From positions 9,612,001-9,676,000 of the forward strand of contig CM097885.1 of assembly GCA_044892525.1 (NCBI GenBank): a stretch of DNA of 64,000 nucleotides, given 5' to 3'. Under the pieces are notes generated by a model, which saw nothing but the letters and a program-made list of their open reading frames with translations, ran no database searches and was not told where the DNA came from. The position numbers were made by a program, and so were the translations under genes. The stretch is from Schmidtea polychroa (taxonomy: Eukaryota). Numbering within the stretch: the first letter of the stretch is position 1; each line of letters starts with the position of its first letter. Of the stretch, positions 1 to 26,458 are shown one piece after another.

Positions 1-5
1 AAGCA

Positions 6-1592
6 ATGAAATTATTAGTAACATGGAGAATACCACAAAGTAATAAATATGCGATAAATATAAACGAATTCTACGAAAACGGAGAAAACGCGATGGTAAA
101 GAATACATTAACTAAAGGGGGGACACCAAAAATTATTTTAATAGTACTAAACAGGGAAGACCTCAAATTCACGCAAAATCAGAACGAGCAACAAAGAATT
201 GGGAAACATCGTCGCATTCAATTAAGAGAATTAGTCAAAGAATGGAATAGAAAGAGACACGCTGCAACGGGCAGAAAAGAGTTTGAATTCGAAGCAAAAT
301 TAGCAAGAAACAGAGTGCTAACAGCATATCGCAGATTATTGAACGATATAAATGTCGGGGACGACATTTTAAACGACAGCGGGGGAGATAAACACGATGA
401 CAATGACGGAAAAGGCCGAAAGGAGGATAAAGAGAAAAGAGAACCGGAAGAGGATACACCGGAAAACAAGGATTCGGATGCGAAAAGAGAGGGAAACAGC
501 CCGGGAACCAAGACCAAAGAGGAGGAAAAACCGAATAATGGAAAACAGAGGGTATGCCTACCTTTCACTAACAAAGAAATAGAGACAAATATGATATTAA
601 TGATAATTATGCTTACCATGATAGAGTTAGTAACAGCTCATGGAGGGACGAGAACGATAAAAGAAACCAAAGAAGCGGAGAATCAAGATGGCAAAGAGGA
701 CGAACTAAAACAAGAAAAGAAAAAGCAAGCACAAGAGCAGCAGTGGGATTTAAAGGAAGAATGGGACTTAAAGGAAAGGTGCATACTAGGAAGATGCATG
801 TCTAGAGCGTGTCAGAAACTAGTACTGATAAATGAGGACACAGAACCAATAACAGAAGTAAGAATACAAGAAGCATACCGAAATCGAGACGGGAAGAGAA
901 TAACGAACGTTAAAGGAAAAGAGGTACACCTAGGAAAAGGTGGTGAAGTAGTAATAACGCAGCTCCAACCAAGAAAAGAGCACAAAGTCTGTATTTCAAG
1001 ATTAGGACCAGGTGAGAGATGCCATCAATATGTGACGCAGCAGCAGCCCCCGAAGGAATACACGGTTTGTATCTGGAGGAACGAATCAAAAAGAGAATGC
1101 CGACGATACCCGGGGAAAAGAGAAAAGAAAAGAAAAAACCACGACGAAAAGGACGAAGGAGGAAAGCACAAGAAAACCGGCGAGGAAGCTCAGGACAACT
1201 ATGTTTCGGAGGAAGAGATGGAAAAAATACAAAAGATGGCAAAGGAGGGTATGAACGAGGAAATAGCAAGAATACGAGAGATGATGAAAGGGAATGGCAA
1301 AAGAGGGAACGAGAAAAGTACAGAAGCAATATCAACATTAACAAACAAGGAAAAACCAGAGAGTATAAGCGTGAAGCAGATGATGTGGATCAGTGGGATA
1401 ATAATAACAGGGGCATTCCTAATCATAACGGGGGGAACAATAAAAATAATTAAAGATAAACGACATCGCGGAGAACTAGAGATGACCCGAATCAGAAATT
1501 TCCAACATCGAGTGAAACGACCAAGTGATATCCAACAAGAACAGTGGGTGGAGGCCTGGAACGCTCAGCGCCCTCCAAACTCACGTATATAG
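6..1592 (+). CDS. Putative membrane protein with internal hydrophobic segment, duplicated FN3-like/Cys motif and C-terminal TM; may start upstream of the window
   Basis: 528-aa ORF; hydrophobic MILMIIMLTMIELVTA; repeated LQPRKEHKVCI / QQPPKEYTVCI motif; TM WISGIIITGAFLIITGGTIKII followed by a basic stop-transfer stretch. Confidence 0.6.
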   Translation: MKLLVTWRIPQSNKYAININEFYENGENAMVKNTLTKGGTPKIILIVLNREDLKFTQNQNEQQRIGKHRRIQLRELVKEWNRKRHAATGRKEFEFEAKLARNRVLTAYRRLLNDINVGDDILNDSGGDKHDDNDGKGRKEDKEKREPEEDTPENKDSDAKREGNSPGTKTKEEEKPNNGKQRVCLPFTNKEIETNMILMIIMLTMIELVTAHGGTRTIKETKEAENQDGKEDELKQEKKKQAQEQQWDLKEEWDLKERCILGRCMSRACQKLVLINEDTEPITEVRIQEAYRNRDGKRITNVKGKEVHLGKGGEVVITQLQPRKEHKVCISRLGPGERCHQYVTQQQPPKEYTVCIWRNESKRECRRYPGKREKKRKNHDEKDEGGKHKKTGEEAQDNYVSEEEMEKIQKMAKEGMNEEIARIREMMKGNGKRGNEKSTEAISTLTNKEKPESISVKQMMWISGIIITGAFLIITGGTIKIIKDKRHRGELEMTRIRNFQHRVKRPSDIQQEQWVEAWNAQRPPNSRI

Positions 1593-1753: not shown

Positions 1754-2113
1754 ATGGATCAAGGAAATAACGAAATGAACCACAACACAGTAACCGAAGA
1801 ATTATGGAAGCAACAATGTGCCGTATTAGCACAATTAGTGTCCAATTTGCAAGAACAAGGATTGACGATGCACAGAAACCTAATCGAGAGTATGAATAGA
1901 GGATTTAGTTATTTGAAGATAATTGAAGACCAGAGGTTAAAAATCGAACAAATGCAAAGAGAAATGGAGAGGATAACCCAATATAGCCGTAGACAGGAAA
2001 TTGAATTGGATAGAATGATGGAGGAAGCAGAACAGACAGAAATAGAAGATTGGTCAGAATGGCTAATGAGTAGAGAGGAGGGCGGACACGAAGCCGACTC
2101 TTCCGAACCATAA
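1754..2113 (+). CDS. Small coiled-coil protein
   Basis: ORF from ATG 1754 (MDQGNNE...); heptad-rich; TATA-like sequence upstream and AATAAA downstream. Confidence 0.6.
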   Translation: MDQGNNEMNHNTVTEELWKQQCAVLAQLVSNLQEQGLTMHRNLIESMNRGFSYLKIIEDQRLKIEQMQREMERITQYSRRQEIELDRMMEEAEQTEIEDWSEWLMSREEGGHEADSSEP

Positions 2114-2198
2114 ACCAAACCTAGCTTAAAATGTAAATAATTGTAAATAAAATATCGAACCTGTATCGATAAGAACTATATGTATATATAATTATAGA

Positions 2199-3578
2199 AT
2201 GGATAAACGACAAAGAGAAGAGTTCAGAGAGATTGTCGAACAAGTCAGAAAATCTACAACGATCCGAACACACAAACATGTTATGTGCGGAATCTGTGAA
2301 AAGTTGTTAAAGGAACCTCACCAAACCCAATGTGGATGCAGAGTATGTAAAGAATGTATCAGTGAAGCAATAAAGAATAGACTACAGTGGTGCCCGGTGT
2401 GTAAAGAGACACTAATATCGAGTTTAGAAGACACTAACGAGGATAAAGCCGCAGTGAAAGACATGTTAAACACCAATCTGGGATGTAAAAATACCCCATG
2501 CGAATGGAAAGGAATAATATGGAAAGTAGTGCAACATATGGGAGAATGTATGTACAGAATCGGCCAGTGTGAAAGGTGCCATAAAACCATTCGAGCAAGC
2601 GAAGAAAAAGAGCATCAAAGGCAGTGTGAAGAGAGATTAGAAAGATGTGAACATTGTGGAGAAATAGATACGTGGAGAAATCTCACCATCAAACATCACA
2701 ATGTCCAAGAGGAGAGAGTATGTGCAGAGTTCAGTGGGGAATGCCCAAACGGATGTAACCAAGGGGAAATAATAAAGGTGGCACAGCATCTAAGGGAATG
2801 TGAAAAGAAAAGAATGACATGTGTACTAGGTAAATGGGGTTGTCAGAAACTACTACACCGAGGGGAGTTACCACATCATTTAGTAGAAAATGCTTCAACC
2901 CACGCAGAAATGTGGTCGACTGCGTTACAAGAAAGCGAAGAGAAAGTAAAACAAATGGAGATAGAGATAACATCGTTGAAAGTGTTAGTCAAAGAACTAC
3001 TAGAAGAAAGGGAAGCGTTCGAAGAAGCCCGAGCAAACATAAAGATGCAAATAAACCGAATAGAAATCAGTAATAATCAGGCCAAGGAGCTACATCAGAA
3101 AATACGGGAAATAAATCTAAATGAAGTAATACCAACAGCACCCTACATATGGAAAATAACGGGAGTAAAAGAAAGAATACGAAAAGCAAAAACCGGAGAA
3201 GAGACAAGGATAACAAGTCCTGCATTCCATTCTTGGAAAAATGGGTACAAGATGAAAATGAGGATATATCCCAACGGGGATGGAACCGGATCGAATACGC
3301 ATTTTTCGATATTTTTCCTATTATGTAAAGGGGAATATGACGAGGTAATAGAATGGCCATTCCAGGCAAAAATCGATATCGCAATGATGAACGACCAAAG
3401 CGTCCACGAACAAAGCTTTAAAACAACGGGAACCCAGCTGTGTTACCGGCGACCTATGGAGGAAGAAGGAGCAGCATCAGGGGCACCTACGTTCATCTTG
3501 CAGCAAAAGGTGGAAGAGATGACGGAAAATGACACAATATATATAAAAATGACAGTACGAAGGGAAGGAAAAGGTTGA
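2199..3578 (+). CDS. TRAF: TRAF-family protein (RING, TRAF zinc fingers, coiled coil, MATH/TRAF-C), intronless
   Basis: CGICEKLLKEPHQTQCGCRVCKEC..CPVC RING; C/H zinc fingers; YIWKI, SPAF, GYKMKMRIYPNGDG, HFSIFF, GEYDEVIEWPF, ASGAPTFI, NDTIYIK MATH motifs. Confidence 0.95.
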   Translation: MDKRQREEFREIVEQVRKSTTIRTHKHVMCGICEKLLKEPHQTQCGCRVCKECISEAIKNRLQWCPVCKETLISSLEDTNEDKAAVKDMLNTNLGCKNTPCEWKGIIWKVVQHMGECMYRIGQCERCHKTIRASEEKEHQRQCEERLERCEHCGEIDTWRNLTIKHHNVQEERVCAEFSGECPNGCNQGEIIKVAQHLRECEKKRMTCVLGKWGCQKLLHRGELPHHLVENASTHAEMWSTALQESEEKVKQMEIEITSLKVLVKELLEEREAFEEARANIKMQINRIEISNNQAKELHQKIREINLNEVIPTAPYIWKITGVKERIRKAKTGEETRITSPAFHSWKNGYKMKMRIYPNGDGTGSNTHFSIFFLLCKGEYDEVIEWPFQAKIDIAMMNDQSVHEQSFKTTGTQLCYRRPMEEEGAASGAPTFILQQKVEEMTENDTIYIKMTVRREGKG

Positions 3579-3781
3579 ACGGAGTAACCCATCGAATAAT
3601 GTTGTATATAATAATCTGTATATATCGGTGTATATAACCAATAAAATATTATATAATAATAGTATGAAAAACCCTAAATACGAAAACCCAAAAATGATGC
3701 GAAAATTTCCAAAGAAACAGTAAATAATGAATAAATTCCTTTTTCATAATAAAAAGATTAATCGATGTCTATGATTTAGAG

Positions 3782-4777
3782 ATGACACAAGAGAAAATAA
3801 CCGAAACTGCGATAGCCCCAACCAATGTCAACAAGACACAAATTCCCCGAGAACATAACAAAAAATGGAACAAAGTAATGTTCCAACTAACTAATCTCAC
3901 CCGAAATCACATCGAAGAAGCTAGAGAGGATGAGAATAGTCAATACCAATGGTTAATACACAACTTAAGAGCGGAAGCAGAAGCATGCAAAAGAGCATCA
4001 AAATGGGCGTCACTAGAAAATACCCGCCAAGAAGCGCACAGCCACTACTTAAAGCAGCTAGTGCAGGAAGCGAGAAAGAGACTTACCGATGAGAACACCA
4101 AGCGCGAAGCGGAAAAGCAAATAGAAGGAAGGAAAATGATGCACTTAGTAGCAGAAGCGAGAAAATGGAAAAGACAAAACAGTGAAATGAAAAAAGAGAT
4201 GAAAGAATTGCCCATGAGACTCGGATATGAGAGCGAACAGGGCAAATGGGAGGAAAATTTAATAATAAAGGAAGAACTGAAACGGTTGAAAAAGGTCGCC
4301 GCCCGAAGCCAAACATGGCAGATGAAGGCTATGGAGTTTGAGCGACATTTGGCAATAAAATGCGACATAAGAGAGCACGAGAATGCCGCAATGGAAGAGA
4401 TGATAACCCAGCAAGCAGGACGGGTTGTGGAATTAGTAAATCAGGTCGAAGAGATGAAAAGAGACCTTAATGGATTACAAGGATCGTTAGAACAAAGAAA
4501 CATGGTCCTAGCGGGAAAAAACAGAAAATTAGAAAACGAGAGGAAAATGTATACCGAAAATATCAAAAACTTGGAAATAGAAATTGAAAAATGGAAGGGC
4601 GACGAGAAAATCAAGGCCTTAGATAGACAAGTAGAGGCGAATGACGAAGAGACAAGGTATCTCACTTATCTGCTCGACGAAGAGCTGAATATCACTCGAG
4701 CTCTAAGAGACGAAGTTAATGAATTGAGAGCTCAAATCCCCCAATATTACCTACCCTATGACCCTATTCCGATATAG
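3782..4777 (+). CDS. Coiled-coil protein of unknown function
   Basis: 331-aa E/K/R-rich heptad ORF with the same strand bias as its neighbours. Confidence 0.7.
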   Translation: MTQEKITETAIAPTNVNKTQIPREHNKKWNKVMFQLTNLTRNHIEEAREDENSQYQWLIHNLRAEAEACKRASKWASLENTRQEAHSHYLKQLVQEARKRLTDENTKREAEKQIEGRKMMHLVAEARKWKRQNSEMKKEMKELPMRLGYESEQGKWEENLIIKEELKRLKKVAARSQTWQMKAMEFERHLAIKCDIREHENAAMEEMITQQAGRVVELVNQVEEMKRDLNGLQGSLEQRNMVLAGKNRKLENERKMYTENIKNLEIEIEKWKGDEKIKALDRQVEANDEETRYLTYLLDEELNITRALRDEVNELRAQIPQYYLPYDPIPI

Positions 4778-5002: not shown

Positions 5003-5713
5003 TATGAAAATCGAGGAAATAATAGAAATTACGAGCGACGTAGAAGAGGGAGAGATTGAGGCAGAAACAACAGAAACACAAACGTTAAAGGCCAAGTTAC
5101 GGGAAGAGAAGTACGAAAACGAGAGACTAGTAAACAAATATATAGAAGACCGAAAAATGATTAAAATACTAAAGAAGGAGTGCGAAGTGCTAGGAGAAAT
5201 AAAGAGAGAAGCTGAAGAGAAGAATGAATGGCTGCAAGAACAACGAACACGAGGAAGAAACTGGGAAAGATTGCAGAGGAACTATGGCAAGAGAGGGCAA
5301 GCTTCAAGGCAGAAGAAGTAATCCAGGATTATTGGAAAACAGAGGCGAAAGAACGCCAAATAACTATAAATAAATTAAATCGACAATTGGAGGAAAAACA
5401 ACGAGAAAGTGAGGAAATGAAGAAATGGATTCGCAAATACCAAGAGATCGAGAGAAAACAACAACAACAACAACAACAACGAAACCTTTCGCAGGAAAAC
5501 GAACGAGATTTCCTACAAATCGAACTAAAAAGGAATCTCGACAAAAAACGGGAAGAAATTAGAAGACTGAAAAAGGAGATAAGGCACATGAAAAGGGAGG
5601 TCCGTGAAAAGAACAGACAGTTGGAAATGCTGCCCGAGTTAAGACACAGAGTCATTAAAGCGGAATCCACCCTGATGAGAATCGCCGAAAATAACCCAAA
5701 TCAGAATCATTAA
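5003..5713 (+). pseudogene. Coiled-coil gene apparently split by a frameshift near 5250
   Basis: Overlapping ORFs 4956-5321 and 5228-5713 read as one continuous coiled coil if the frame shifts near acacgaggaagaaac. Confidence 0.55.
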
Positions 5714-5754: not shown

Positions 5755-6324
5755 ATGTATAATAGTATCATGCGAGGCGAGATGATGATAACAATGACGG
5801 TATTGATGATTCTGATGGAGAGCAAGCAAGTAAGCACCCAACCGAAAATCGTACGAGATTACCGAAATCAAAATCAAGAACCTAAACAAGAATCCGGCCA
5901 ATGCACATACCCTATGACAGTAAAAATCCATATCATCCAAACCATTCAATCAACCCGATCACACATCAACAACATCCAAACAATGTGTAAAAAGAATCCC
6001 ATTTGTAAAATGATAAACAAACAAATCCTCGAACAAATCCAACAATTCGACCAGTTGGAACAACAAATGCAACAAGAGAATTTTGAAAATCTTGTAGAAA
6101 AGCCAAAAACACCTCCCGAAATCAATAACACCCATTATCTCATATATGTGGTGATCGCAGAAACCCTCCTCCTATGTCTACCAATACTCATGAAGATTTA
6201 CGAAGTTAGAAATAAATGTAGAATCTCGACATCAATAAGAGTAACCTCGAACAGAAATCCTCAAGAAGTGCCACTGACAAATCTTAACCCAACCCCATTC
6301 CGACCTCGAATCCCGAGTAACTAA
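5755..6324 (+). CDS. Type I membrane protein (signal peptide, Cys-containing ectodomain, TM, Pro-rich tail)
   Basis: N-terminal MMITMTVLMILM; TM YLIYVVIAETLLLCLPILMKIY. Confidence 0.6.
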   Translation: MYNSIMRGEMMITMTVLMILMESKQVSTQPKIVRDYRNQNQEPKQESGQCTYPMTVKIHIIQTIQSTRSHINNIQTMCKKNPICKMINKQILEQIQQFDQLEQQMQQENFENLVEKPKTPPEINNTHYLIYVVIAETLLLCLPILMKIYEVRNKCRISTSIRVTSNRNPQEVPLTNLNPTPFRPRIPSN

Positions 6325-6649: not shown

Positions 6650-7260
6650 TGTTGGGCTGAGTCGAAGGGTAGTTGGGAAATTAGGGCAAACTTAACTAAA
6701 ATAAAATAAAAAATAAAACCAAATAAATTGACAAATAAAATAGAATAAAACATAAGAAAAACAATAATTAGAAAATAAGAATTAAAACAAAAAATATAAA
6801 GATGAGAAAAATTAAAATAGGACAATAGAATGACGGAAAACAACGTAAAATATAGTAAATAATAAGAAAATTAAGGAAAATAAATAAAAACATAATTTTA
6901 ATAAAGAAAGTAAGAAGAAATAACTCAAAAACAAGGAAAATAAATTAAATTAATAAAATTAAGCGGTACTCAATTCTAATTGGTCCGCGCAAACAAAAAA
7001 TTAATATATAAGCAGGCATTAAAAACATAACAATTACTGTTAATCAAACCACCTCAATAGGTAAGTGAAATTTAAATAACAAACTACTGTTAATCAAACC
7101 ACCTCAATAGGTAAATCTATTCTACGACAGTACAGAAATCCAGCAACTAACGCACGATAACTCACGAGGACAATTCCAAGATTCAAGAGATTTTTACAGA
7201 ACTAGACGATATTCGAGCATTAACTGATTCGACACAGTACCCTTTTCGACTCAGCCCATA
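6650..7260 (+). mobile_element. LTR-like unit, probable 3' LTR of the upstream cassette
   Basis: Starts TGTT; perfect 14-bp inverted repeat TGGGCTGAGTCGAA (6653-6666) / TTCGACTCAGCCCA (7245-7258); TATATAA near 7005; internal ~29-bp direct repeat near 7036 and 7086. Confidence 0.5.
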
Positions 7261-9508
7261 CTTATATCAATCATTCGGTAAGGATTTTTGATTTCTTATT
7301 TTGAATTTTTAAGTAATGCGTATAGTCTAATAATATTTTTAATTTAAAGAATGGTTTTTCTTTTCGTTTGATTTTCGAATGCTTTATTGAAATTAATGAT
7401 TTGGCTAATAATAAATGATCTGCTTTCTAGGAATTATTGATTTTTCTTTGATGAATTATTTTTATGAGTTATTATTATGTTAATTAAATTTTTGAGGAAC
7501 GTGGCGTTGAGATACTCTATGTCATGGTGTGAGGTGCCTTCGGGAGCTCCACCGGTGGACATAGAGTATTTCAATCACGCAGCTAGATTGGGCCGAAATG
7601 TGGGGGCTTCTTCACGGGTCCAATCGCTGAAGGTGCGACTAAAATCTATAGGTAAATTGTGGCAGAAAATTGATAGTCATATAGTGATTGAAAACAAAGA
7701 TATGTAATAAATGAATCGGAGAATTTTGATGTATTCGCGCAGTGATTGAGGGCGTCACACCATCGTCTCCAGATATCGTTTCTACTAAGCCAAATTTTCT
7801 CTATCAGTGAGGTAATCGTTCAGACCTTAGTGAGGCTATGTGTGACATATCTTCGATGTTCACCCTTTTCACCCAGAATCTGTTCCGACCCATTTTTGCC
7901 TATGACCTTTAGAACTGTTATTCCGTTCATCTAAAAGTTTTCTTAGAGACATAGTAGTAAGGAAGTTCAAAATAGATTGCTTCAGACAAGTATTAGGATT
8001 ACTCGAAATGACTGCTTGTAAATCAATGGTAGAACCATGTAAAATGATTTAGTCCAAATAGTTATTCAGAATTGCATAAAACGAGTTTGTTCCAAATAAA
8101 AGTTTAAATTACATAAAATGATTTGCTATAATAAATTTTTAGAATTTTATATAAAAGGATTTACATACAATTAATTATCATAATTACATAAACTATTGGC
8201 ATCAAATAATTTAAAAATGAAAAATGCAACCAATTCGAGCCAAGAAAAATATATTTCTTCAATTTAGCCGATGATCTTGTTAATTAAATATAAAATTCCA
8301 GTATTTCATGGGGTTGGCAATCCAGCAGGGATAGGTAGAAAATCTCCAGAACTTAGAGAATAGATCGATAAACTGTGTTTGAGGAATTAAAGACGAAAAA
8401 TCCACCCCTGGAGCAAACCATATCCAACGTCTGCGATATAGAGAATCATAATTTTTCCAATAATTCGGTGAGAATTAGTAGATCATCATCATATGCAGGA
8501 GAATTGTGAGCAATTACGCGGTAGATAAAAATCCGAGAAAATGCCATCATGCAAACATTTAACACCTACATTTGTAGCGACGAGTATAAATAAGTGTGTG
8601 AAAGCGCACCTTACATGCGTCACCCAGTTGCAGACATACCCAGTAGGCAAGTACAGTGGGCAAGGTCACACCCGCCTCTACTCATGAAAAATCGGACCGG
8701 ACGTATCAGATGGAATTTCCATTAGCTAATTAAATCACCGACAGGCATCAGATTTCATCGCTCCAGATTGATAGTCAACCACCGGGCTGACGTTTACTTA
8801 TCTACCTAGCAGGAATGGTCGGCTGCTAGCTCACATTGATACCGTGCTCAGTTATCATAACGACAATATCTTTTGATGCTAAACCCAATCATAATTATGA
8901 TTATTTTTTCTTTATTATCTTAGCATGAATGATACAGAAACTATTTCATTTTTGACCTAATTATCATTAGTATTAATATTAAATATTATTAAACAAGTAT
9001 TATTTAAACAAGATAAAACAAATATGTGAGTAATTAGAGAGAATGAATAAATAATCGAAAAATTAAATAACCTTCCGTTTATCATGTAGGAACTAATTAA
9101 AAGACATTATGGGCCCCCTTTTCCGTAGATATTTACTCGACCCCAGTATATGATACACTCATCAAAATCACTCGTTCGGGGGGAGAAGTCAACAATTTAA
9201 CTCGATTCTCGGTAAACGTGAAATAATGACTTCAAGCGGATTAAATAAATAATCATTTTCATCGACCTAGAATTTCTCTCACTAATGGTAATATCTCCCT
9301 TTCCTTGTGCGAAATCTGGTTTGATCGATTTATCTTCTTATAATTAAAGACCCAAAAGGTATGAGGATCCATCGTGCAGTAGAACTTGTCTTGACTGGTA
9401 AACCCATATTTTTGTCTATGATCAGTAAAGTATGAATGTGGTCAGATGGTGACACTCCCGTTGATTTAATTATTTTCATTTTTCATTTTTTCTCCACAGT
9501 CACTCAAA

Positions 9509-10258
9509 ATGTTGCCAAATTCCAAGACCGTTCTTCGCCCTTGTTTTTCTTGTTCCGACAAGAATTCAATTATCAAAGAGCTCCAGGCCCAAATCGGAAA
9601 GCACAAAAGGAGAATAGATGAGTTAGGGGGGACATGGTTTAGTCCCACCCAGATGAAGGAGGTTCAGAAGAAGCTGCACCGAAGCGAGCACTGTAGAGAC
9701 GCGTTAATCTCCGAGAGTCGGGCGCAGAGGAGCCTAATAAAAGAGCAGGCGGAGGCGCTGCACAAATTATACGTCCAGGCAGCAACTACCAGGAAGATCG
9801 CGAAGATCCCAATTAATGAAGCCGGAAATCTTTTCCCTGCGCATCATAATATCTCTGGTGGGTCTTCTTCTCCAGTCGGGAAGTCCTGCCATGGGTGCGT
9901 AGAGGCCGAGCTCTCACCTAAAGAACCGGAAATCATCTTTACCGGAACTAGTAAAGTGCTACCTGCGATGGCATCTACCTCTGCAACCCCCCCGACCAAT
10001 CAGGCGGCATCGAAGCCAAAGCGTCGGCAATTATCGAGAGCCGAGCGCAAAAAGAAACAGCGGGAACGCGTAACCGCCAAACAGGACCAGAAACCGACGG
10101 ATCATCCGGTCGAAGTCATCACCCCTCCGGCAGCAATCGAGCTGGCATCAGTGATCTCTGGGCGAATCATCTCCGCCGCTGGTGTCACCTGGGAGGAAAA
10201 TGCCTCTGAATTTTTCGATTTGGAAGATCTATTGGCAGACTCGGAGTGGGAGAAATGA
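9509..10258 (+). CDS. Hypothetical protein with coiled coil and basic NLS-like stretch, probably TE-associated
   Basis: 249-aa ORF in a GC-richer island; KPKRRQLSRAERKKKQR. Confidence 0.45.
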   Translation: MLPNSKTVLRPCFSCSDKNSIIKELQAQIGKHKRRIDELGGTWFSPTQMKEVQKKLHRSEHCRDALISESRAQRSLIKEQAEALHKLYVQAATTRKIAKIPINEAGNLFPAHHNISGGSSSPVGKSCHGCVEAELSPKEPEIIFTGTSKVLPAMASTSATPPTNQAASKPKRRQLSRAERKKKQRERVTAKQDQKPTDHPVEVITPPAAIELASVISGRIISAAGVTWEENASEFFDLEDLLADSEWEK

Positions 10259-12045
10259 GAACTTCTCCGTAAAAGGTTTTCGTTCTCTGAAATTACCCGA
10301 ACATTGTCTGATAACATTTTTACCTTTGTCTCTTTTCCTGTTGTCGTGAATTATATTGTATAAGTGTTAGATATATTTGTGTGATAATCTTAATAATAAA
10401 CCATTTGTGTCTGCATACGTTTTTTTTGTGTGTTCATCTTAGGACAGTTGAGTTGAAATTGGTGAATGGTATTGAGAGTCACAAAATTTTGAGGAGCATT
10501 AGTCAGTTGGCAACTCAGCTAGAAACATTGCGATGGGGCGACGGAATGAGTAGACGTAAGTCCTTCTATCGGCAGTCAGGGTTGGGAAGTCGAGGCCTCA
10601 GTAAGGAGTAGTCCGAAGGAGCTGGCTCACCTGCTTACTGGCGTCTCGCCGGCATAGCACAGTTCCAACGTGAAGCAATTCACGGGTGCTATGTTGGAGT
10701 GTAGGTTATGTACGGGTCCCGCTCGGCGATGACCAAATAAATGACGGGCGAAATCGAGGTGGGCATTCATCCTCTAGACTAAAGCTGCACTAGAAAGGGG
10801 TCATCCGAGTAGTGTACCCGCAACATAATATAATTTTTGTTCAGTTCAACTTTAATGAAGCAGCGTTTTTGTATTCTTAAAAAATTATTTCTAAAATATT
10901 TGAAATTTGAAAAAGGCCCTTTCAATATCTTGGAATGCGTATACAAAAGGCGGTCTATTTAGATTCAAACCCGATCAAAATAGTGTTTTTATTGTTTTAA
11001 CGGTAGACGAAATTGGGAATTCGTGTAAATTGCGATAGTTTTGCAATAAAAAATCTTGCAAAAACACCAAAGTATTGAAAATGTGTTTGTAAGTTTGAAT
11101 AGGAAACGGGGTTTACTTAATATTTAATAAAATTAATATGTGTTTAAGTGGCTGTGATTATTTAAATTTCTTGGAAAATGCGTTTAACACCAGAAAAATT
11201 AAAAGAAAAAATGGCAATAAAGTTATTAATTTAAAATGCGCCAGGAGAATACATAATAATATAAAAATAAATGGTAAACATTATAATACTTGGTAATAGA
11301 ATAACAATCACTGAAACCAGTTTATTTTTGTTACTTTGTAATCCGCTACAAAACTAACTACTTTTTAATTGACACGGCCCTCGATTGCTGTTATAAGAAA
11401 AATTTGGCCCTTCATAATATTTAGTTGAATACCCATGCTCTAGTACATTACATAAAATTACATAAAATTACATAAAATTACATAACATGTATCTTTAATT
11501 GTTTTTCTTTTTTATGCTGATCAATTTTTGGATGTACGTTTTTTTCGAAATTTTTATCTGGCAAGCCTAATATATATATATGTGTTTTATTTCAACTACA
11601 AAGGCTTTGACCCTCCTAAGAAAAAGGGAAACAGATATAATACTGTTTTTATCTCTCGAATTCAACTTTTTATTAATTGCTTATTACTTCGAATATAGGC
11701 TGCACCCTAATTTTGCAGATTAAAAATGTACTAAGTACTAAGTGTGGCTTATATTCGAAGAACTACGGTACTTAATTTATTTAATAAAGTTATTTTAAAT
11801 CAAATTTCAAAGATGCAAAATTGTAATATTTGCTGTTAAAAAATTTAATAGTTAATATAGAACTTTTAAATTTTTAATTTAAAATAGAATCGAAAATGTA
11901 AAACATACAAGAATTAAATTTAATTACGAAATTCCAAAATTTATTTTAGTGTTTAACTAAACTAAATTTATCATATTTTTAGATAAAGCGCAATTCAAAT
12001 ATTAAATTGTAAATGAAAGATATTTTTATTTCAATTAATAAAAAC

Positions 12046-17781: not shown

Positions 17782-20700
17782 TCAGTAATCTTCTCCGTCA
17801 AAATTGTCGTCATCATCATATATAAAAGTGTCCCCTATCCGATAATGCCCATATGCCAAACTCTTGTTTTTCGATTTCCAATACCGCTTGTCATCTCTAT
17901 TTGTCAGCGCCTTCTTAATGTTTTTTATGCTGTACAATTGATGATTTTTGGATGCAATGCGGAATTGTGGCACAGAGTAAACCTTATTGTTAAAATAACA
18001 ATCACGATAGGAATTGTGATCTAAGCCAGTATCTTTCAACGTGACAGATTTTGCTTTAAGAGTTTCTTTATCACCTAATAAGCTGTAACACTTGGGACGA
18101 AGAAACACCCACTCCTTATATCTCAATCCTTTATTCTCGTCTTTGAATTTTCCAATGACGGAATCTAGTGCTCTACTATATAAAGGATGTTGTGGGTTAT
18201 AATTAGATGTGTCAAGCAAGGAGTCACGAATCATGGCAGGTAAGAGAATGTCAAGACTACAATTTTTAATTTCCAAAAAGAAAGAGTCTGTATCACTAGC
18301 TACTATATTAATTTCACAGTTAAACTCATCGCGATATTTTTGCAATTCATTATACTGCAACTGATACATTCTCAGTTTAGAAAGATCAAGTACAGTTTGC
18401 CCGATGTAGCTGGGCCTATCTAAACATACAGACTCTTTCATAAGCAAAACCGAAATCAAATCATCGTCTATCCTAGTAGATTTCTTAAATGCCGGTTTTG
18501 AGGCATATGTGATAAGTTTTTGTGCGGAAATGCACAGTCGTAAGTTAATACGTTTTTTCAAGTTCTCAACAGTTTTTCCATACAAACTGTTATTGAGCAA
18601 CTTGTAATAGTCTTTATCGAGCGGTGTTATGGATGCGGCTCGTAGTTGTGTGTTGGTATCTATGTATTTCTTGAAGACAGTGCTTTGTGTATACCTAATA
18701 GCCCTATGTACCTTGGTAACAACAACACCTGACTGAAGAAAGATTTGGAGAAGTCGCCAATGTAAAACATAGTGTGTTTTCGGATCGTGTGTAAGTAGCA
18801 ACTTCTCCACTTTAGAAAAAGGTGGGCACATCTTACCAGGAGCTACCGGAAAATCATCTAGTTTGTCATGGATAGATTTCGGTATTTTTAAATCTACTTC
18901 TATAGTATAGCCATAATCAAGTTGATTTAAATCTTCCGTTGTGCACTCAATTAATAATCTCTCTAAAGCAATGTCATCAGTCACCCATTCAAAACCACCG
19001 TCGGGAAGCTTTTGTGATAAAGCCCATCCATACAGGTTGTTGATGTCAATATACAACAACTCTGTATTTTCATCACTACTAACAAAATGTTTATTCACAA
19101 ACGTTATCCCACCTCTAATCCCACCTTCAAAGAAATTATACATTTCCATGTCGGTGAGAAGCTCAATCGGTTTATCAAGACTTAACAAAGCAGAACTCCA
19201 AGAAAGACTGGGGATACCTAGGAAATTCAAAGGCTCAAGCCTATTATGAGCAATACTCTTAGCTCGGAATTGCTGAAAAAAGTCAGCCAACAGAAATACA
19301 TCTAATTTCAAATAGACCATCATATAATCCAAAAGGGAATTACATGATGTCTCTTGCCAGATTAGTTTTGCTTTATTGTATTCATCATCGGATACATCAC
19401 TCCATTTAGGGGGCAATTCTAATGTAGAAATTAATACATCAAGGGAAGTTGCTACATCATAAGGGAAAATCCCTTTACTCTTAATAATAGACCCTCTAAA
19501 CTCAGATTCTGTCAAAGGTAATGTGTTAAGGGTTGAGACAGCATTTTTCAAAGACGAATTTACAAACTGACAAGAATCTATAAATTTCACAGTCAGGGAA
19601 TCAATATGCACAAAAAGAGATAAAAAGTTTTCACTTCTCACCGGTATACAAGAAATATCCCAGGACTTATATTTAGCCAAGCCAAATTTGAGGATATGAT
19701 GGAGATCATACCCTCTCAAATTATGAAAGACTACAGGTAGTGTGTGGTATATTTTCCTGGAAAGATTACAAGTGTTGCAAGCAGCACCAAGGAATTGACC
19801 GGTAAAGTGATCATGATCCCTGACTGGTTTAACTAATAATTTTTTACACAAATGACAGTTTGTGCTGTTATTAAAATTAATTTGGTCATTTTCTGTGAAT
19901 ATCATTTTCTTATTTTTATTTTTATAATAATAGGGAGTTACAATCTTTTTAGCGATATCATTAATTTCTTTTAAAAATTCGTCTATACAAGAAAGGCCTA
20001 TGAATGATTTATAAAATTTTGCGCCTGTATTATTATTTATACATAAAAGTCCAGCCGAAATGGGTAAATGTTTCTGATAATATTTAGAATCTTTAGGAAG
20101 GATTGCCTCAAAATCGGCATAAATAACAAAAGGAGGAGTAATCATTTTACTATAGTCTGTGAATTCTAATAATGGATCTTTTGGTAGTGTGTACATTGTG
20201 GTTCCTAATTGGTTTCGTTCACAAAGACCTTGATGTTTAATAAAACTATCTTCAAATCTGAATCCATTCAGACATCTAGGACACCACTTACAGTAAATAC
20301 GAACAGAACTTATTGATGAATTTCGGCAATTAAGAAAGATGTTTAAATCAGATATAGCGACGTAATGGTAGGTTTTCCGATTCTGTAATAATAACAAATT
20401 TAGACAAGTACCTCCTACTATTTTACTGCGATAAATTATATCTATAAAAGGATGTTTCATGATGGGACCCGAAATTAACCCAGTTTCGTCATAACTTAAA
20501 ACATTAATTGAATAACCTGGGTTTTGTCGTTCAAATTTTGAGATATTTGATAATTTCATTGGCATATCTGCCGGGTTATATATCAGATCTGAAAGGTTAT
20601 AAGAACTAGGCAGATGACGCAATTCATCAGGAGTACTATCATATTTTATAAGAGCCAAAACCGAGTAAAGGAAACAAAATTCGTCATCATTATTTACATT

Positions 20701-21684
20701 TATTATACATTTTTTCCTGATTAATGTTTTCGGGGTTTCAATATATTTACGACCACTCAACCTACTAATCTTTGAATATTTTGTCACAATAAAACTAATG
20801 TATTCTATTTTGTTAATGGTCCAATTACTTCCCTTTTCATTTATTTTACTAATTTTTTCATTTAAAAGAGAGATACCATCATCAATAAATGTGTCGCTCC
20901 ATACACGAGCAGAGTTTGAGATTATGAAAGACTGAAATTCATCATTTTTCTCAAACTCTACTTTAATACAAAATTGAATTTTTACTGATTTCATTTTATT
21001 TACAATTTCTAACAATTTTTCTATGAGAACGTCAGGAACAGAAAGAATTTTACAATTCAAGGAAGATATATCCAACTTAACTATTACATGGGAACTATTC
21101 AGGTCGGAAACTACGTCGACTATACCACTACCTACTTGGGGTACAACATCACTATTTTCAAATTCACTATTTTCACTATTTTCAAATTCACTATTTATAA
21201 CTTCACTATTTATAACTTCACTATTTACAACTTCACTATTTACAACTTCATTACTTACAACATCATCGTCGTCTTCACTAATGACTATTATTTCTTTCAT
21301 CTTTTTTGTGGGAATTTCTGTGGGAATTTCTAAATGTCTTTTATTACCTATTATTCCTATTAATCTATTGACTGTTTCCATTAATTGTCGATTTTGTATC
21401 AACATGGCATTAATCATACTTTTGTTGGTGGTCCTATTATTGATTTTTGTTGATGTTTCCATTAATTGTCGATTTTGTAAGTTTTCGGTGTTCCTATTAT
21501 TAGTTGATGATATATATTTTTGATACGCAATTTTGAAAACTGATTTTTTAGAAGGCATATATTGGGTTAAATGATTACGATGTTTATCATAAAATTCGGT
21601 ATATGTCGATGTTTCAAGAGTTTGGCATGTAGGACACAACAAGTATGTTACACTTTTATATTCATGACCATAATATTTTTCCAT
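17782..21684 (-). CDS. polB: Protein-primed family B DNA polymerase, copy 1
   Basis: YADFE, FHNLRGYD, DINNLYG, YKLLNNSLYGK, SDTDS and PKCYS motifs; endonuclease VII-like RDHDHFTG..AACNTCN. Confidence 0.97.
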   Translation of the reverse strand: MEKYYGHEYKSVTYLLCPTCQTLETSTYTEFYDKHRNHLTQYMPSKKSVFKIAYQKYISSTNNRNTENLQNRQLMETSTKINNRTTNKSMINAMLIQNRQLMETVNRLIGIIGNKRHLEIPTEIPTKKMKEIIVISEDDDDVVSNEVVNSEVVNSEVINSEVINSEFENSENSEFENSDVVPQVGSGIVDVVSDLNSSHVIVKLDISSLNCKILSVPDVLIEKLLEIVNKMKSVKIQFCIKVEFEKNDEFQSFIISNSARVWSDTFIDDGISLLNEKISKINEKGSNWTINKIEYISFIVTKYSKISRLSGRKYIETPKTLIRKKCIINVNNDDEFCFLYSVLALIKYDSTPDELRHLPSSYNLSDLIYNPADMPMKLSNISKFERQNPGYSINVLSYDETGLISGPIMKHPFIDIIYRSKIVGGTCLNLLLLQNRKTYHYVAISDLNIFLNCRNSSISSVRIYCKWCPRCLNGFRFEDSFIKHQGLCERNQLGTTMYTLPKDPLLEFTDYSKMITPPFVIYADFEAILPKDSKYYQKHLPISAGLLCINNNTGAKFYKSFIGLSCIDEFLKEINDIAKKIVTPYYYKNKNKKMIFTENDQINFNNSTNCHLCKKLLVKPVRDHDHFTGQFLGAACNTCNLSRKIYHTLPVVFHNLRGYDLHHILKFGLAKYKSWDISCIPVRSENFLSLFVHIDSLTVKFIDSCQFVNSSLKNAVSTLNTLPLTESEFRGSIIKSKGIFPYDVATSLDVLISTLELPPKWSDVSDDEYNKAKLIWQETSCNSLLDYMMVYLKLDVFLLADFFQQFRAKSIAHNRLEPLNFLGIPSLSWSSALLSLDKPIELLTDMEMYNFFEGGIRGGITFVNKHFVSSDENTELLYIDINNLYGWALSQKLPDGGFEWVTDDIALERLLIECTTEDLNQLDYGYTIEVDLKIPKSIHDKLDDFPVAPGKMCPPFSKVEKLLLTHDPKTHYVLHWRLLQIFLQSGVVVTKVHRAIRYTQSTVFKKYIDTNTQLRAASITPLDKDYYKLLNNSLYGKTVENLKKRINLRLCISAQKLITYASKPAFKKSTRIDDDLISVLLMKESVCLDRPSYIGQTVLDLSKLRMYQLQYNELQKYRDEFNCEINIVASDTDSFFLEIKNCSLDILLPAMIRDSLLDTSNYNPQHPLYSRALDSVIGKFKDENKGLRYKEWVFLRPKCYSLLGDKETLKAKSVTLKDTGLDHNSYRDCYFNNKVYSVPQFRIASKNHQLYSIKNIKKALTNRDDKRYWKSKNKSLAYGHYRIGDTFIYDDDDNFDGEDY

Positions 21685-21887
21685 AATATCGTCACAGTCA
21701 TGATGTGTAGCACTGTTACAAAAGGTTGGATATTTATAACCTATAAAATAAGTAAAATAGTATTATTATCAAAATTATTATTATTTATTATTACTATATA
21801 ATCTGAGTTTATACGACAAAATATTCTGTCCCTCCCTTGCTCATAAGTGTATTATATTTAAATTTATTTTAATTAAATAAAAACATA

Positions 21888-22145
21888 CAGTCTTTTCCAA
21901 ATTATGTTATTGATGATTTACTTGCTATTTTAATTAAAGTTGTTAAAGGTAAATTCCGTATAAGTACATCAAATAAAAAGATTTTGAACAGACACAAGAA
22001 ACCACTATTATCATTAGTAAATACTAAAAATAAAAAACGTATGCGTAAAATCATATATAAACAACAAGGAGGCTTCATTGCAGCCTTGATACCAATAGCA
22101 TTATCTTTATTGGGAGGGGCAGGTTTATTAAAATCATCATCATAA
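21888..22145 (+). pseudogene. 5'-truncated small Polinton virion protein (QxGG site followed by an amphipathic helix)
   Basis: Frame QSFPNYVIDDLL...KQQGGFIAALIPIALSLLGGAG; no ATG at its 5' end; the open frame begins at the inverted-arm boundary. Confidence 0.7.
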
Positions 22146-22148
22146 ACA

Positions 22149-22370
22149 ATGGGTCAATCATTACCAAATCTTAATTTGAATTTTAAATCTTCCTGTTGTA
22201 ATGGAGAAGATTTGGACGAACCCAGAAGACGAAGCCGGTTTCGGTGGAGTGGCAAAATTAAAGAAAAGAGTTCCGAATTCGAAAAAAGAAACCCAGAAGT
22301 GGTTATCAAATCAACTAGCGTACAGTTTGAACAAACCAATGCAGAAAAGATTTCCAACAAGAGCGTATAA
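22149..22370 (+). CDS. Candidate overprinted small lipidated protein
   Basis: MGQSL...KSSCC; ATG 4 nt after the upstream stop; overlaps the integrase in another frame. Confidence 0.4.
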   Translation: MGQSLPNLNLNFKSSCCNGEDLDEPRRRSRFRWSGKIKEKSSEFEKRNPEVVIKSTSVQFEQTNAEKISNKSV

Positions 22371-22588
22371 AACATATGGAATAAATGATTTGTGGCAAAT
22401 GGATTTGATGGAGATGATACCCTATTCAAAAATTAACAAGGGGTATAAATATATTTTAACGTGTATTAATGTATACAGCAGGTTTGCACGAGCAATACCA
22501 GTCAAGTCAAAATCTGCAGATGAAATGTCCAAAGCTATTAATATTTTATTTAAAAATGGACATCCTAACAATTTACAAACGGATTTAG

Positions 22589-22686
<98 letters not shown>

Positions 22687-23316
22687 TTAGGTAAAGAATT
22701 CTACAACAGTAAAGTTAAGCAAATCCTCGATAAACTGAAAATAAATCACTACTCGGTACATTCTCAATACAAAGCTGCTCATGTTGAAAGATTTAACAGA
22801 ACCTTGAGAGATAGATTAAAGAAATTGTTCGTGTATCAAGGTAATAAAAAATGGGTATTGGTTTTACCAAAAATTATAACCAGTTATAATAATTCATCAC
22901 ATCGAGGACTTAATGGATTGAGACCGGTTGATATCACATCAAAAACATTCTATTCTAAAAAATCTGAAAAAATTACAAAACCGAAATATAAAGTTGGTGA
23001 CCATGTTAGAATTAGTAAAATTAGTGCATCACCATTTATTAAAAATTTCGATACAAATTGGAGTGATGAAGTCTTTGTAATTTCGAAAATAAATACTAGC
23101 CAGAACCCTGTGATGTATGTCATCAGAGATTCTGAAAATAACATTGTACATGGGAAATTTTATGAGCAAGAATTACAAGTCATTCCTCCCCCAAAAGTAT
23201 TTAGAATTCAAAAAATATTGAAAACTAAAATGGTGGGTAAGGATAAACAATACTATGTCAAATGGCATGGATATAAAAACCCATCATGGATATCGTCTCG
23301 AGACCTCGTAAAATGA
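22201..23316 (+). CDS. int: Retroviral-like integrase with C-terminal chromodomain; intron 22589-22690
   Basis: LWQMDL, QTDLG|KEF, VERFNRTL, YYVKWHGY..SWI; GT-(ATT)n-AG intron. Confidence 0.95.
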
Positions 23317-24332
23317 ATTTTTACATTATTTTGCCAAGTAATAGTTGTCCGAATATACATCCAGAAAACACTGCCAGTAAATTTATGGTCAATCTCCAAA
23401 ATCCGATTTATTTAAATGGTAATTGGGAAGTTGCTCTCCTTGACTTTACATTTGTGTACAATCTCTTTCCAATTTATAGTAAAGCTAAAATTGAATATAA
23501 AAAGAAAGAGACGCAAAGAAATATCTCTTTTGTCATTGATAATGTAGAAGATCGAATTGATATTGGTCCTTCCGATTCAATTGTCAAAATGTATATTGAT
23601 CGTCAATATTTAATAGTTGAATGTAAATATCATCCCTTTACTATAAAATTTGATAGTTTAGCAATGGCAAAACGATTGGAATTAACAAGTCAGAGTAATA
23701 GAAATCATACTAATATATTCCAAGTACTACGGCCGAGATTTACCAAAGTAGCAGCGCGATATGAGACAATTTCAATGAAAGTTGAGTTTGAGGGTGAAAC
23801 TGAAAATACATATACGTTTAATGAGAATTTATACATTTCTAAATTGGAGGAATTACAATCATATTTAATTCAGAATTGTGGATCAATATTTAAATCATTG
23901 GAATTAGTAGACAATACTTTGTTCAAATTCAGTTTGAATACTGATATTACTGAAATTACTTTTGATAAAAATCTAATAAAAACATTAGGATTATCAAAAG
24001 GAACATATATTCAAGATGGAAAATTAAATGTAGGTATGAATAAACCGAAAATAATTAAACTTCATCATCAAATGTTTCTCTATACTAATATTATTGAACC
24101 CATAATTGTTGGTGATTCTTTGGTTCCTCTATTGAAATCTATTTGGGTTGAGAAACATGAACAAGATGATGTTGTACAAATCAATGTAGAAAATCCCATG
24201 TATTTGCCTGTTTCAACATCCTGTATAAACAATATAGAAATAAATATAAGAGATGATTCTGGTCAATTAATCGAATTTGCAAAAGATTCAAAAACTCATT
24301 TGACACTACATTTTCGTAAAGTAGATGGCTAA
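23313..24332 (+). CDS. Minor capsid protein (penton)
   Basis: MNFYIILPSNS...NTASKF..L.NPI.L.G.WEVAL and YTNIIEPIIVGDSLVPLL..P.YLPV motifs typical of Polinton pentons. Confidence 0.85.
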   Translation: MNFYIILPSNSCPNIHPENTASKFMVNLQNPIYLNGNWEVALLDFTFVYNLFPIYSKAKIEYKKKETQRNISFVIDNVEDRIDIGPSDSIVKMYIDRQYLIVECKYHPFTIKFDSLAMAKRLELTSQSNRNHTNIFQVLRPRFTKVAARYETISMKVEFEGETENTYTFNENLYISKLEELQSYLIQNCGSIFKSLELVDNTLFKFSLNTDITEITFDKNLIKTLGLSKGTYIQDGKLNVGMNKPKIIKLHHQMFLYTNIIEPIIVGDSLVPLLKSIWVEKHEQDDVVQINVENPMYLPVSTSCINNIEINIRDDSGQLIEFAKDSKTHLTLHFRKVDG

Positions 24333-24714
24333 TTCTGATATTATTAGTATGTATAGTGGTAGCCAAAGTGGTGGCGAATTACCATATTTTGTTGGTAAAC
24401 AGTACGGAAGTGGGTGGTTGAGAACAATTGGTAGATTTGCGTTACCAATTCTTAAACGTATTGGTAATTTCGGTATGAAAACTGCAAAAGATGTAATTAT
24501 GAATGACAAGAAAATATTACCATCGTTGAAATCAAATGCAATTGCTGAAATAAGTAAAGTAATACCTGGTATGTTTAAAACTGAACCAGCACTGGTACCA
24601 GTAAAACGTAAATTTGAAAGTGAAATTAAAACAAGTATGGGAACTAAACGCAAGAGAGGGAGAAGGCATATAAACAAACGAATGAAAGGACACGGAACCA
24701 TATTTGAAGAATGA
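24325..24714 (+). CDS. Basic Polinton core-like protein with protease-site-like motifs
   Basis: QSGG, QYGSG followed by WLRTIGRFALPILK, and a basic C-terminus. Confidence 0.75.
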   Translation: MANSDIISMYSGSQSGGELPYFVGKQYGSGWLRTIGRFALPILKRIGNFGMKTAKDVIMNDKKILPSLKSNAIAEISKVIPGMFKTEPALVPVKRKFESEIKTSMGTKRKRGRRHINKRMKGHGTIFEE

Positions 24715-25937
24715 TTTGCGGTAAATCTGAATTATGTCTATTTGATCGACCATCGCCTCAGGCGGTTATCGAATATGGAGCATTTGAAGATGTATTTCCA
24801 ATGAATTCTATTACCGATAGTAGAAATGATGTGGAATTTTACATTAATGGTTCTCAAACAGAATATTTAGATTTGAACGATACTTTGTTGTATGTTCAAA
24901 TAAAAGTTGTAGATAAAGACAATAAAGCATTAGCTGCAGATGATACAACTGAACCTAATAATTTCTTGTTTCATACTCTCTTTAAAGATGTTATTCTTGG
25001 ATTTAATAACATTAAAATTGAGGGTGGAAACAATACATATGCTCACAAGGCAATTATCGAAACTATTTTAAATTATAATAATGATACTAAAGATACTTGT
25101 CTAACTCCAATGGGATATGGTGTATCTGATGATCGAAAAAAGTGGATTAAAGGCTCAAAAACTTTCAACATGTGTTCATCTCTACAATTGGATTTTATGG
25201 ATCAACCCAAATATTTACTACCAGGTGTTAATGTACATATGAGATTGAAAAGATCTGATTCTGCATTGGCATTATCAACTGGAGTTGCAGGTGCAGCACC
25301 TAAATTAATATTACTCGATGCCAAATTAATGGTTCGAAGAGTTCGATGTGAATCGTCTGTATTAGCGGGACATCAAATTGGATTAAATACCAAACATGCA
25401 ATTTATCCGATAAAAACAAAAGAAATTGTATCATTTGCAATTGCTAAAGGAGCATCATCTTTTTACAAGGAGCAAATATTTGGAGATCGAAGAATGCCTA
25501 ATTTTATCCTTGTAACTTTTCAAAGTGAAGCTCAATATAACGGATCTTATGATACATCTTCATCAAAATTCAAACACTTTAGTGTAACTTCTCTTTCATT
25601 ATCGAAAAATACTGATTATCGAGAAACTTATACTCAAGATTTTGATAATGATAATTATTGTACTTCATATATGCAAAGTCTTGTCAGAAATTTAGGATAT
25701 TTGGATAAAAATCTTAATTGTGGTATAAGTCTGGAAGAATTCAAAACATTCTATCCATTTTTCACATTTGTTCTGGCTCCAGATTTTGATTTAAATCAAA
25801 GTCAATTACCTCAAAGTGGCAATTTGAGATTGGATATTAAGTTCGGTAAAGCAACTACTGAACCAGTCCATGTAATAATCTATGGGGTTTTTGAAAATGA
25901 AATCCAAATTACTGCAAATCGAACTGTACTAGTATAA
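24711..25937 (+). CDS. Major capsid protein (double jelly-roll)
   Basis: KSELCLF..P..Q, YLDLNDTLLYV, NNFLFHTLF, QPKYLLPGV, GNLRLDIKF. Confidence 0.9.
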   Translation: MICGKSELCLFDRPSPQAVIEYGAFEDVFPMNSITDSRNDVEFYINGSQTEYLDLNDTLLYVQIKVVDKDNKALAADDTTEPNNFLFHTLFKDVILGFNNIKIEGGNNTYAHKAIIETILNYNNDTKDTCLTPMGYGVSDDRKKWIKGSKTFNMCSSLQLDFMDQPKYLLPGVNVHMRLKRSDSALALSTGVAGAAPKLILLDAKLMVRRVRCESSVLAGHQIGLNTKHAIYPIKTKEIVSFAIAKGASSFYKEQIFGDRRMPNFILVTFQSEAQYNGSYDTSSSKFKHFSVTSLSLSKNTDYRETYTQDFDNDNYCTSYMQSLVRNLGYLDKNLNCGISLEEFKTFYPFFTFVLAPDFDLNQSQLPQSGNLRLDIKFGKATTEPVHVIIYGVFENEIQITANRTVLV

Positions 25938-25967
25938 ATGAAGAAATTTAAAAGATTAAAGTTTTTT

Positions 25968-26352
25968 ATGGAGTAAGATTTTTATTTTATAATTTAACTT
26001 ATTGATTAGTTCTATTCAGGTGTCTCGAATTGGTACTCAATTATTGGGAAACGAATTTCTTGGAGTTTATCCACTGGATAAAATTCCATATTTGAGAAAT
26101 AATCAAGCCATAATCGTCAATACTCATACATCTAGTTTAGGAGGTGAACATTGGATTGCTGTATATGTGAAACCAAACCGAGTATATGCATTCGATCCCT
26201 TTGGATATTATTACCCAAATTTATTAATTAGTAAATTGCAAACTATTGGTAAACCTATTGTATATAATCGAACTCGGTATCAAAATCCATTTTCAATTAC
26301 TTGTGGCCAACATTGCCTTGCATGGTTGTTATCAATGTATAATTTTGTTTAA
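25968..26352 (+). CDS. pro: Adenain-like cysteine protease; 37-bp intron 25973-26009 (alternative ATG at 25938)
   Basis: Spliced start MDSIQV; IVNT..GEHWIA, FDPFG and Q...S.TCGQHC. Confidence 0.9.
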
Positions 26353-26374
26353 TAAATGTATTAAATGTCACAAG

Positions 26375-26458
<84 letters not shown>

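Follow-up and report, generated by a model that had tools for sequence, protein, structure and literature searches.

A complete TRAF-family gene among the accessory genes of a giant LTR retroelement in the planarian Schmidtea polychroa

Introduction

Planarians harbor giant Ty3/Gypsy retroelements, Burro/GYPSM1, which are described in parts of PMC6431247 as carrying MATH_TRAF_C, BIR, ankyrin and BCL2-like domains together with an in-frame env, and the same text proposes that this cargo meddles with apoptosis and ubiquitination. MATH_TRAF_C lies in the polyprotein in S. mediterranea and on an upstream accessory ORF in D. tigrina (PMC6431247). Section 7 of PMC6431247 gives no account of a whole TRAF gene, RING included, lying behind pol; the original papers may show one. 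Our literature search found no other paper on a complete TRAF carried by such elements, the term TRAF is absent from the relevant passages of PMC8532177 and PMC11410931, and the passages of PMC6109357 that report a planarian MATH expansion do not link it to elements. A more distant parallel is ORF111L of the iridovirus ISKNV, likened here by its description in part of PMC3352826 alone: it is also a TRAF homologue on a genetic parasite, but the parasite is a large DNA virus of fish and the protein has been tested as pro-apoptotic.

Here we analyzed a 64,000-nucleotide stretch of S. polychroa DNA (contig CM097885.1, positions 9,612,001 to 9,676,000; the window) that contains an intact TRAF gene in a mobile-element context. 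The element resembles Burro/GYPSM1, as far as described in PMC6431247, in its length of more than 30 kb with LTRs, its gag with CCHC knuckles, an env-like gene for a fusion protein, placed between gag and protease, a BCL2-like fold, ankyrin repeats, accessory ORFs and TRAF-domain cargo. It differs from that description in having a complete RING-zinc finger-coiled coil-MATH gene downstream of pol. MATH/TRAF cargo in such elements is already published (PMC6431247, in the part cited), and the TRAF of the window is a fuller variant. A complete TRAF under selection, next to cargo of IAP and BCL2 type, goes beyond a domain annotation: RNAi in planarians can test whether a retroelement manipulates the survival signaling of its host.

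Results

The TRAF is the second of five accessory genes in a 30-kb LTR element

We compared the 50 kb upstream of the window with its first 12 kb and found a direct repeat of 4181 bp at 99.86% identity. The 5' LTR lies at window positions -19589..-15414, 26.2 kb upstream of the 3' LTR, giving a young element of 30,415 bp. TAAT flanks it on both sides, as a 4-bp target duplication would, within AT-rich surroundings. Behind the 5' LTR is the motif TGGGGGCTC, a putative tRNA-Pro-type primer site. The mobile-element context given in the original prediction thus holds, with paired LTRs and with most of the TRAF-bearing element upstream of the window. The features of the element around the TRAF are as follows:

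1..1592, + strand: 3' end of an integrase-ankyrin-membrane-anchored ORF (rve E 2.5e-13, Ank_2 E 5.7e-20) whose start lies 2.5 kb upstream of the window
1754..2113, + strand: accessory ORF 1, 119 aa, without a family match (retained by subfamilies A1b and A2; dN/dS 0.04-0.11)
2199..3578, + strand: full-length TRAF ORF, 459 aa (ATG to stop, intronless; ORF list, Pfam and model)
3782..4777, + strand: accessory coiled-coil-like ORF, 331 aa (ORF list, copy comparison)
5004..5713, + strand: accessory coiled-coil-like ORF in two frames in the window copy (one ORF of 233-250 aa in three other copies)
5755..6324, + strand: accessory ORF, 189 aa (hydrophobic N-terminal and internal segments)
6650..10825, + strand: 3' LTR, TG...CA, 4176 bp long (6 differences between the two LTRs)
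9509..10258, + strand: ORF inside the 3' LTR, 249 aa, no family (ORF list, Pfam, copy comparison)

Pfam matches give the element order as gag with zinc knuckles, a fusion glycoprotein of Monjiviricetes type, protease, reverse transcriptase, RNase H, integrase and ankyrin repeats, followed by five accessory genes, of which the TRAF is the second. An ORF with an IAP-type RING (zf-C3HC4_3, E 1.9e-11) precedes gag. The polyprotein segment before env has a Bcl-2-like predicted fold (model pLDDT 67); all Foldseek matches listed were Bcl-2 family members, at TM about 0.6 and a best E of 0.02, and sequence searches with this segment gave no significant match. A ubiquitin-like match in the polyprotein was weak (PF00240, E 0.072).

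The polyprotein of the window copy is broken in three places, and the TRAF is open. The same holds for all three of the family A copies whose polyprotein was read through (the window element, L166-L168 and L169-L171): each has several breaks there and an open TRAF, and their LTRs are >99.5% identical. The breaks may reflect assembly error or copying in trans. Separately, the ORF at 9509-10258 contains an Arg/Lys-rich stretch, has counterparts of 247 aa in A1b and 252 aa in A2, and is preceded by a pyrimidine tract and AG.

The ORF encodes all domains of a TRAF

The original prediction of a complete RING-zinc finger-coiled coil-MATH architecture was confirmed for the intronless 459-aa ORF by Pfam, PDB matches and the AlphaFold2 fold. 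Its parts are:

2286..2402, + strand: C4C4 RING (C30, C33, C45, C47, C50, C53, C65, C68)
2484..2903, + strand: five TRAF-type zinc fingers (Cys/His spacing; fingers 1-2 align to TRAF5/6)
2892..3110, + strand: predicted long helix or coiled coil, aa 232-304, ~70 residues (AlphaFold2, pLDDT about 90)
3144..3563, + strand: MATH/TRAF-C domain (Pfam, Foldseek)

Pfam called the MATH domain both as TRAF-mep_MATH (PF21355, E 1.7e-26, aa 336-450) and as MATH_2 (E 8.7e-26, aa 316-453). RING models matched below the cut-off only (zf-C3HC4, E 8e-4, aa 30-68), and Pfam made no zf-TRAF call. In PDB sequence searches, the TRAF domains of TRAF1/2/3 were matched at E about 1e-27, and the N-terminus matched the RING and zinc fingers of TRAF5/6 at E about 1e-14. 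The AlphaFold2 model (mean pLDDT 86.5) shows a RING, zinc fingers, a long helix and a MATH sandwich, and Foldseek matched the modeled MATH to TRAF3/1/2 at E 1e-17. Sequence and predicted structure together thus identify the ORF as a member of the TRAF family. The window TRAF ends three codons early; of 20 loci read, the remaining 19 have a 462-aa form.

The MATH groove retains RIYPNGDG. At the Ser-rich stretch of TRAF1 and TRAF3 (SAS, SSS), which we take to be peptide-binding groove residues, the window TRAF has QLC, and host-type peptide binding may therefore be lost.

The all-cysteine RING is the host form

A variant RING, with CGCRVC where TRAFs usually have CGHRFC, had been put forward as a special feature. 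The motif is indeed present at that site, and in the alignment with TRAF5/6 its C47 stands opposite the His of their CGHRFC. The all-cysteine form, by contrast with that expectation, turned out to be the form of the host: CGC was found in all 17 distinct host TRAF RINGs in the fetched loci, whether or not RING and MATH share a reading frame, and in the RINGs of Dendrocoelum lacteum TRAF-2, -4 and -5. The database record of Dugesia japonica TRAF2-like A lacks a RING, and a fish TRAF2 has CGH. In the protein library, CGC occurred in 16 of 98 RING-bearing proteins, and 53 of 151 library proteins had no RING match. The CGC RING is thus a lineage trait, not to be taken for an innovation of the element, a reading that the host sequences rule out. 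All-cysteine RINGs can be active, as in CNOT4. All 70 intact copies of the gene retain seven of the RING cysteines, and 69 retain the eighth; CGCRxC is kept in all 20 pattern matches on C1 picked outside the scored copies described below. The Cys/His pattern of the five zinc fingers is also kept across the 70 copies.

RING to MATH runs in one frame at nine host TRAF loci as well, which makes the absence of introns a weak sign of capture.

Dispersed copies share the gene order and are under purifying selection

A protein search of the 781-Mb genome gave 1979 candidates, and the best 92 were scored, full length and at 91-100% identity; four of these best scorers contain stops. A TRAF 22-mer common to subfamilies A1 and A1b had 147 exact matches in the genome (control, 0). 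Among 20 further copies on C1, outside the 92, 12 were intact. The TRAF occupies the same element position in subfamilies A1, A1b and A2 and in the sister family B; gene order is unchanged in one copy each of A1b and A2, whose LTR stretches are 99.8% and 99.6% identical. Family B encodes a 4688-aa polyprotein with an internal MATH, and its downstream TRAF (474 aa, 30% identical to the family A TRAF) adjoins a BIR-RING IAP. A BIR domain and a polyprotein MATH were both absent from the family A ORFs scanned with Pfam, and family B fits the description of Burro1, as given in part of PMC6431247, better than the family A element of the window does.

The original prediction had named intronless host TRAFs together with a syntenic single-copy locus as evidence against capture. 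Intronless host TRAFs exist, as seen at the nine single-frame loci, whereas 147 matches do not fit a single-copy gene. The claim of captured cargo accordingly stands, with 92 full-length copies scored; its immune-modulator part is doubtful as far as NF-kB is concerned (see below).

For dN/dS we used 70 intact copies and pairwise Nei-Gojobori estimates, in which pairs are not independent; duplicates, the broken L004, L019/L128 and L126, and also L086 (start filter), were left out. The value within A1 was 0.126 (57 distinct sequences), between A1 and A1b 0.10, and within A2 0.07. A1 and A2 TRAFs are 71% identical, with synonymous sites saturated. The window TRAF compared with the 12 further intact copies again gave 0.126. 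In five other copies, RT had dN/dS of 0.00-0.02 and TRAF 0.07-0.28. The comparison among copies proposed with the original prediction thus came to 0.07-0.14, and these sequence comparisons show that the TRAF is under purifying selection, a signal common to sets picked by different queries.

Codon use pointed in the same direction as first claimed, matching the neighboring ORFs. At fourfold sites, the window TRAF has A 0.54 and T 0.09, close to element gag, env-PR-RT and IN-Ank (A 0.52-0.53, T 0.09-0.11); five host TRAFs have A 0.36-0.44 and T 0.26-0.32.

These data bear on whether the TRAF is a host gene or a neutral passenger lying by chance in a repeat. Several host TRAFs do share the intronless RING-MATH form and the same RING motif, as this reading would have it. 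Against it are the 147 dispersed matches, the shared position in A1, A1b, A2 and family B, a dN/dS of about 0.1 up to saturated dS and the element-type codon use. Copy number, shared context and dN/dS refute it, and we give it hardly any credence.

Selection differs along the protein: within A1, dN/dS was 0.07 for the RING and 0.23 for the coiled coil. This contrast bears on a second alternative, in which the element TRAF would act as a decoy or dominant negative, joining host TRAF trimers or filling docking sites, with its own ligase activity minor. An intact coiled coil and MATH, as modeled, and an identity of only about 30% to host TRAFs with a changed groove would suit such a role. The tighter constraint on the RING does not, and favors a working ligase over a pure decoy; we consider the decoy unlikely.

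Separately from these comparisons, three pairs of TRAF copies lie 26-28 kb apart (C4:46256274/46282455, C2:45020145/45048179 and C4:69865766/69892050); two of the pairs are on the same strand with equal scores, as expected of tandem elements sharing an LTR. In L057/L059, Polinton-like genes spanning about 14 kb, with inverted ends that are identical over 337 bp, interrupt a family B copy downstream of its RNase H.

The MATH domain is diverse by recombination

Diversity among copies peaks at window 3280-3850, from the C-terminal half of MATH into the spacer that follows it. In the 4.4-kb region compared, pi reached 0.11 at the C-terminal half of MATH and was mostly 0.02-0.06 elsewhere. At least three haplotypes of this half occur among copies, and that of the window TRAF is a recombinant tract nearer to A1b.

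Lentiviral accessory proteins mark host restriction factors for degradation. The element TRAF could similarly be a re-targeted ubiquitin ligase, whose drifted MATH groove would bind a host restriction factor and whose RING would mark it for degradation. The haplotypes and the diversity peak would be in keeping with such a role, as would the kept RING cysteines beside groove-side residues that differ from host and human TRAFs. Furthermore, Burro1 is controlled by SMEDWI-2, according to passages of PMC8532177. However, pN/pS in the haplotype tract (0.17-0.20) is not raised but the same as in the rest of the TRAF, synonymous diversity rises along with it, and similarly patchy dS is found in IN and RNase H, so that ordinary recombination suffices to explain the haplotypes. 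Positive selection in the MATH groove was looked for through pN/pS and not found. We therefore regard re-targeting as improbable, and place the candidate factors, components of piRNA, RNAi or nucleic-acid sensing, at the same low level. A broader version is slightly less probable still: that the elements are complex endogenous retroviruses splicing accessory mRNAs, with the TRAF as a re-targeted ligase whose MATH alleles are swapped against a host defense factor.

Element TRAFs form a branch of their own

We next considered the origin of the gene. Among 1.84 billion protein representatives, the best single-stretch full-length matches were planarian TRAFs where named (10 of 150 library matches looked up, 5 with a species name). 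A protein homologue search gave 1 match among 2931 candidates. Planarian TRAF2-like host proteins (D. japonica, D. lacteum) share with the window TRAF a length of 450-490 aa, the domain order and, where a RING is present, CGC. They differ in their non-element context and ordinary codon use, while the element TRAF sits on a separate long branch with a changed peptide groove. Identity of the window TRAF to host TRAFs is about 30%.

In a full-length tree of 19 rows, the TRAFs of families A and B grouped at 96/94, with long-branch and composition warnings; shared composition and long branches may help this grouping. A MATH tree of 41 rows, from which four long or redundant rows of the full-length tree and two library rows were left out, grouped three element-borne MATH types at 88/88 with no host TRAF among them. 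The sampled host TRAFs formed their own clades (97/91, 100/98 and 94/97) outside the element branch; Dugesia and Dendrocoelum both have members in the TRAF2A-like clade, and the intron-bearing cluster forms a clade apart from it. The phylogeny proposed with the original prediction thus places element TRAFs on their own branch, with no sampled host TRAF nested within. Since element TRAFs group and host TRAFs are not nested among them, these trees suggest that one old capture, followed by duplication within elements, is likely. The element TRAF was likely taken long ago from a planarian TRAF, judging by its closest matches and tree position. AU tests for the donor rejected neither the TRAF2A-like clade (p-AU 0.57) nor the intron-bearing cluster (0.36).

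Dense clusters of host MATH exons (~190-aa frames, with RING in a separate frame) lie on C2 at about 105-124 Mb and 1-5 Mb, and represent a tandem host TRAF expansion. An origin of the sampled host expansion from the element found no support, the host clades being separate from the element branch in the MATH tree. Planarian MATH-transcript counts (121 in the cited passage of PMC6109357; 282 in that of PMC7586133) may include element copies.

Most accessory genes carry acceptor-like motifs at their start codons

The TRAF lies 15 kb into the retroelement RNA and hence needs a message of its own. Two features precede its ATG:

2146..2151, + strand: AATAAA, poly(A)-signal-like, in the spacer before the TRAF (AT-rich, so weak)
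2195..2197, + strand: TAG, splice-acceptor-like, one base ahead of the TRAF ATG

AATAAA is found in most spacers between accessory ORFs. YAG stands 1-2 nt ahead of the TRAF ATG in 70 of 70 intact copies (TAG in 67, CAG in 3). Of the 15 accessory ORFs in the two families, 12 have a YAG no more than 4 nt from their start codon. As background, 14% of ATGs inside the element and 11% of those elsewhere in the window have such a YAG, and gag has none. This excess has a binomial p of 1e-8, or 3e-5 with a doubled background, the ATG having been chosen in three ORFs. These motifs suggest that a TRAF mRNA is likely spliced, either from an LTR leader or by spliced-leader trans-splicing; internal promoters at TATA-like spacer motifs may be an alternative. 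Contigs of run X1, guessed to be RNA and without a DNA control, span the TRAF, with no joint to the TRAF acceptor among the matches listed.

A proposed role in damping death signaling

TRAFs form trimers in which MATH docks on peptide motifs and the RING engages an E2. By analogy, the element TRAF would trimerize, its MATH would bind peptide motifs of receptors or adaptors, and its RING would recruit an E2. The likely outcome would be a damping of stress and death signaling that keeps the element-expressing cell alive. Such pro-survival damping is our best guess because of the IAP-type RING and the predicted BCL2 fold in the same element, because of the BIR-RING IAP next to the family B TRAF, and because of host TRAF knock-downs: RNAi of planarian host TRAFs leads to more cell death (in the passage cited from PMC7586133), and traf2-1 acts as an inhibitor in a TAK1/p38 screen (likewise in part of PMC4993586).

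The original prediction placed the TRAF in Toll- and TNFR-type NF-kB signaling. This frame is doubtful, as no clear NF-kB homologue is reported in S. mediterranea in the relevant part of PMC13563047. A PF00554 (NF-kB) profile search of the genome gave no match, and its control likewise matched nowhere. Judging by the neighboring cargo and the host TRAF knock-downs, the target would most likely be TAK1/p38/JNK and survival signaling, not NF-kB.

The opposite role, a pro-death or pro-inflammatory activator aiding the exit of enveloped particles in the manner of the iridovirus TRAF ORF111L, would make sense of the fusion glycoprotein gene, and ORF111L binds TRADD and triggers caspase 8 (in the cited part of PMC3352826). 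It sits badly with the neighboring IAP-type and BCL2-fold cargo and with an integrated element's dependence on surviving stem or germ cells, and appears quite improbable. Taken together, we favor, at somewhat better than even confidence, a TRAF gene kept by the element, expressed from a spliced mRNA, captured long ago from a planarian and acting in pro-survival damping.

Other mobile elements in the window

A second capture from the ubiquitin pathway had also been predicted for the window. The prediction most likely refers to a ubiquitin-bearing ORF (51546-54977, - strand) of 1143 aa, which carries ubiquitin (E 7.6e-23) together with DUF1759, EAP30 and parts of proteasome subunits. This ORF is a gag of Bel/Pao type (DUF1759) that has captured fragments, and it does not belong to the element with the TRAF.

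At 17782-31278, two near-identical ORFs of 1300 aa lie in inverted orientation (17782-21684, - strand; 27376-31278, + strand) and flank an rve and chromo integrase and three unnamed ORFs; Pfam found only Endonuclease_7, rve and Chromo there. This stretch resembles a Polinton-type element that has undergone an inverted duplication, and polymerase and capsid genes may be among its ORFs. Lastly, an open 433-aa ORF at 33452-34753 (+ strand) encodes a DDE_1/Tc5-type transposase.
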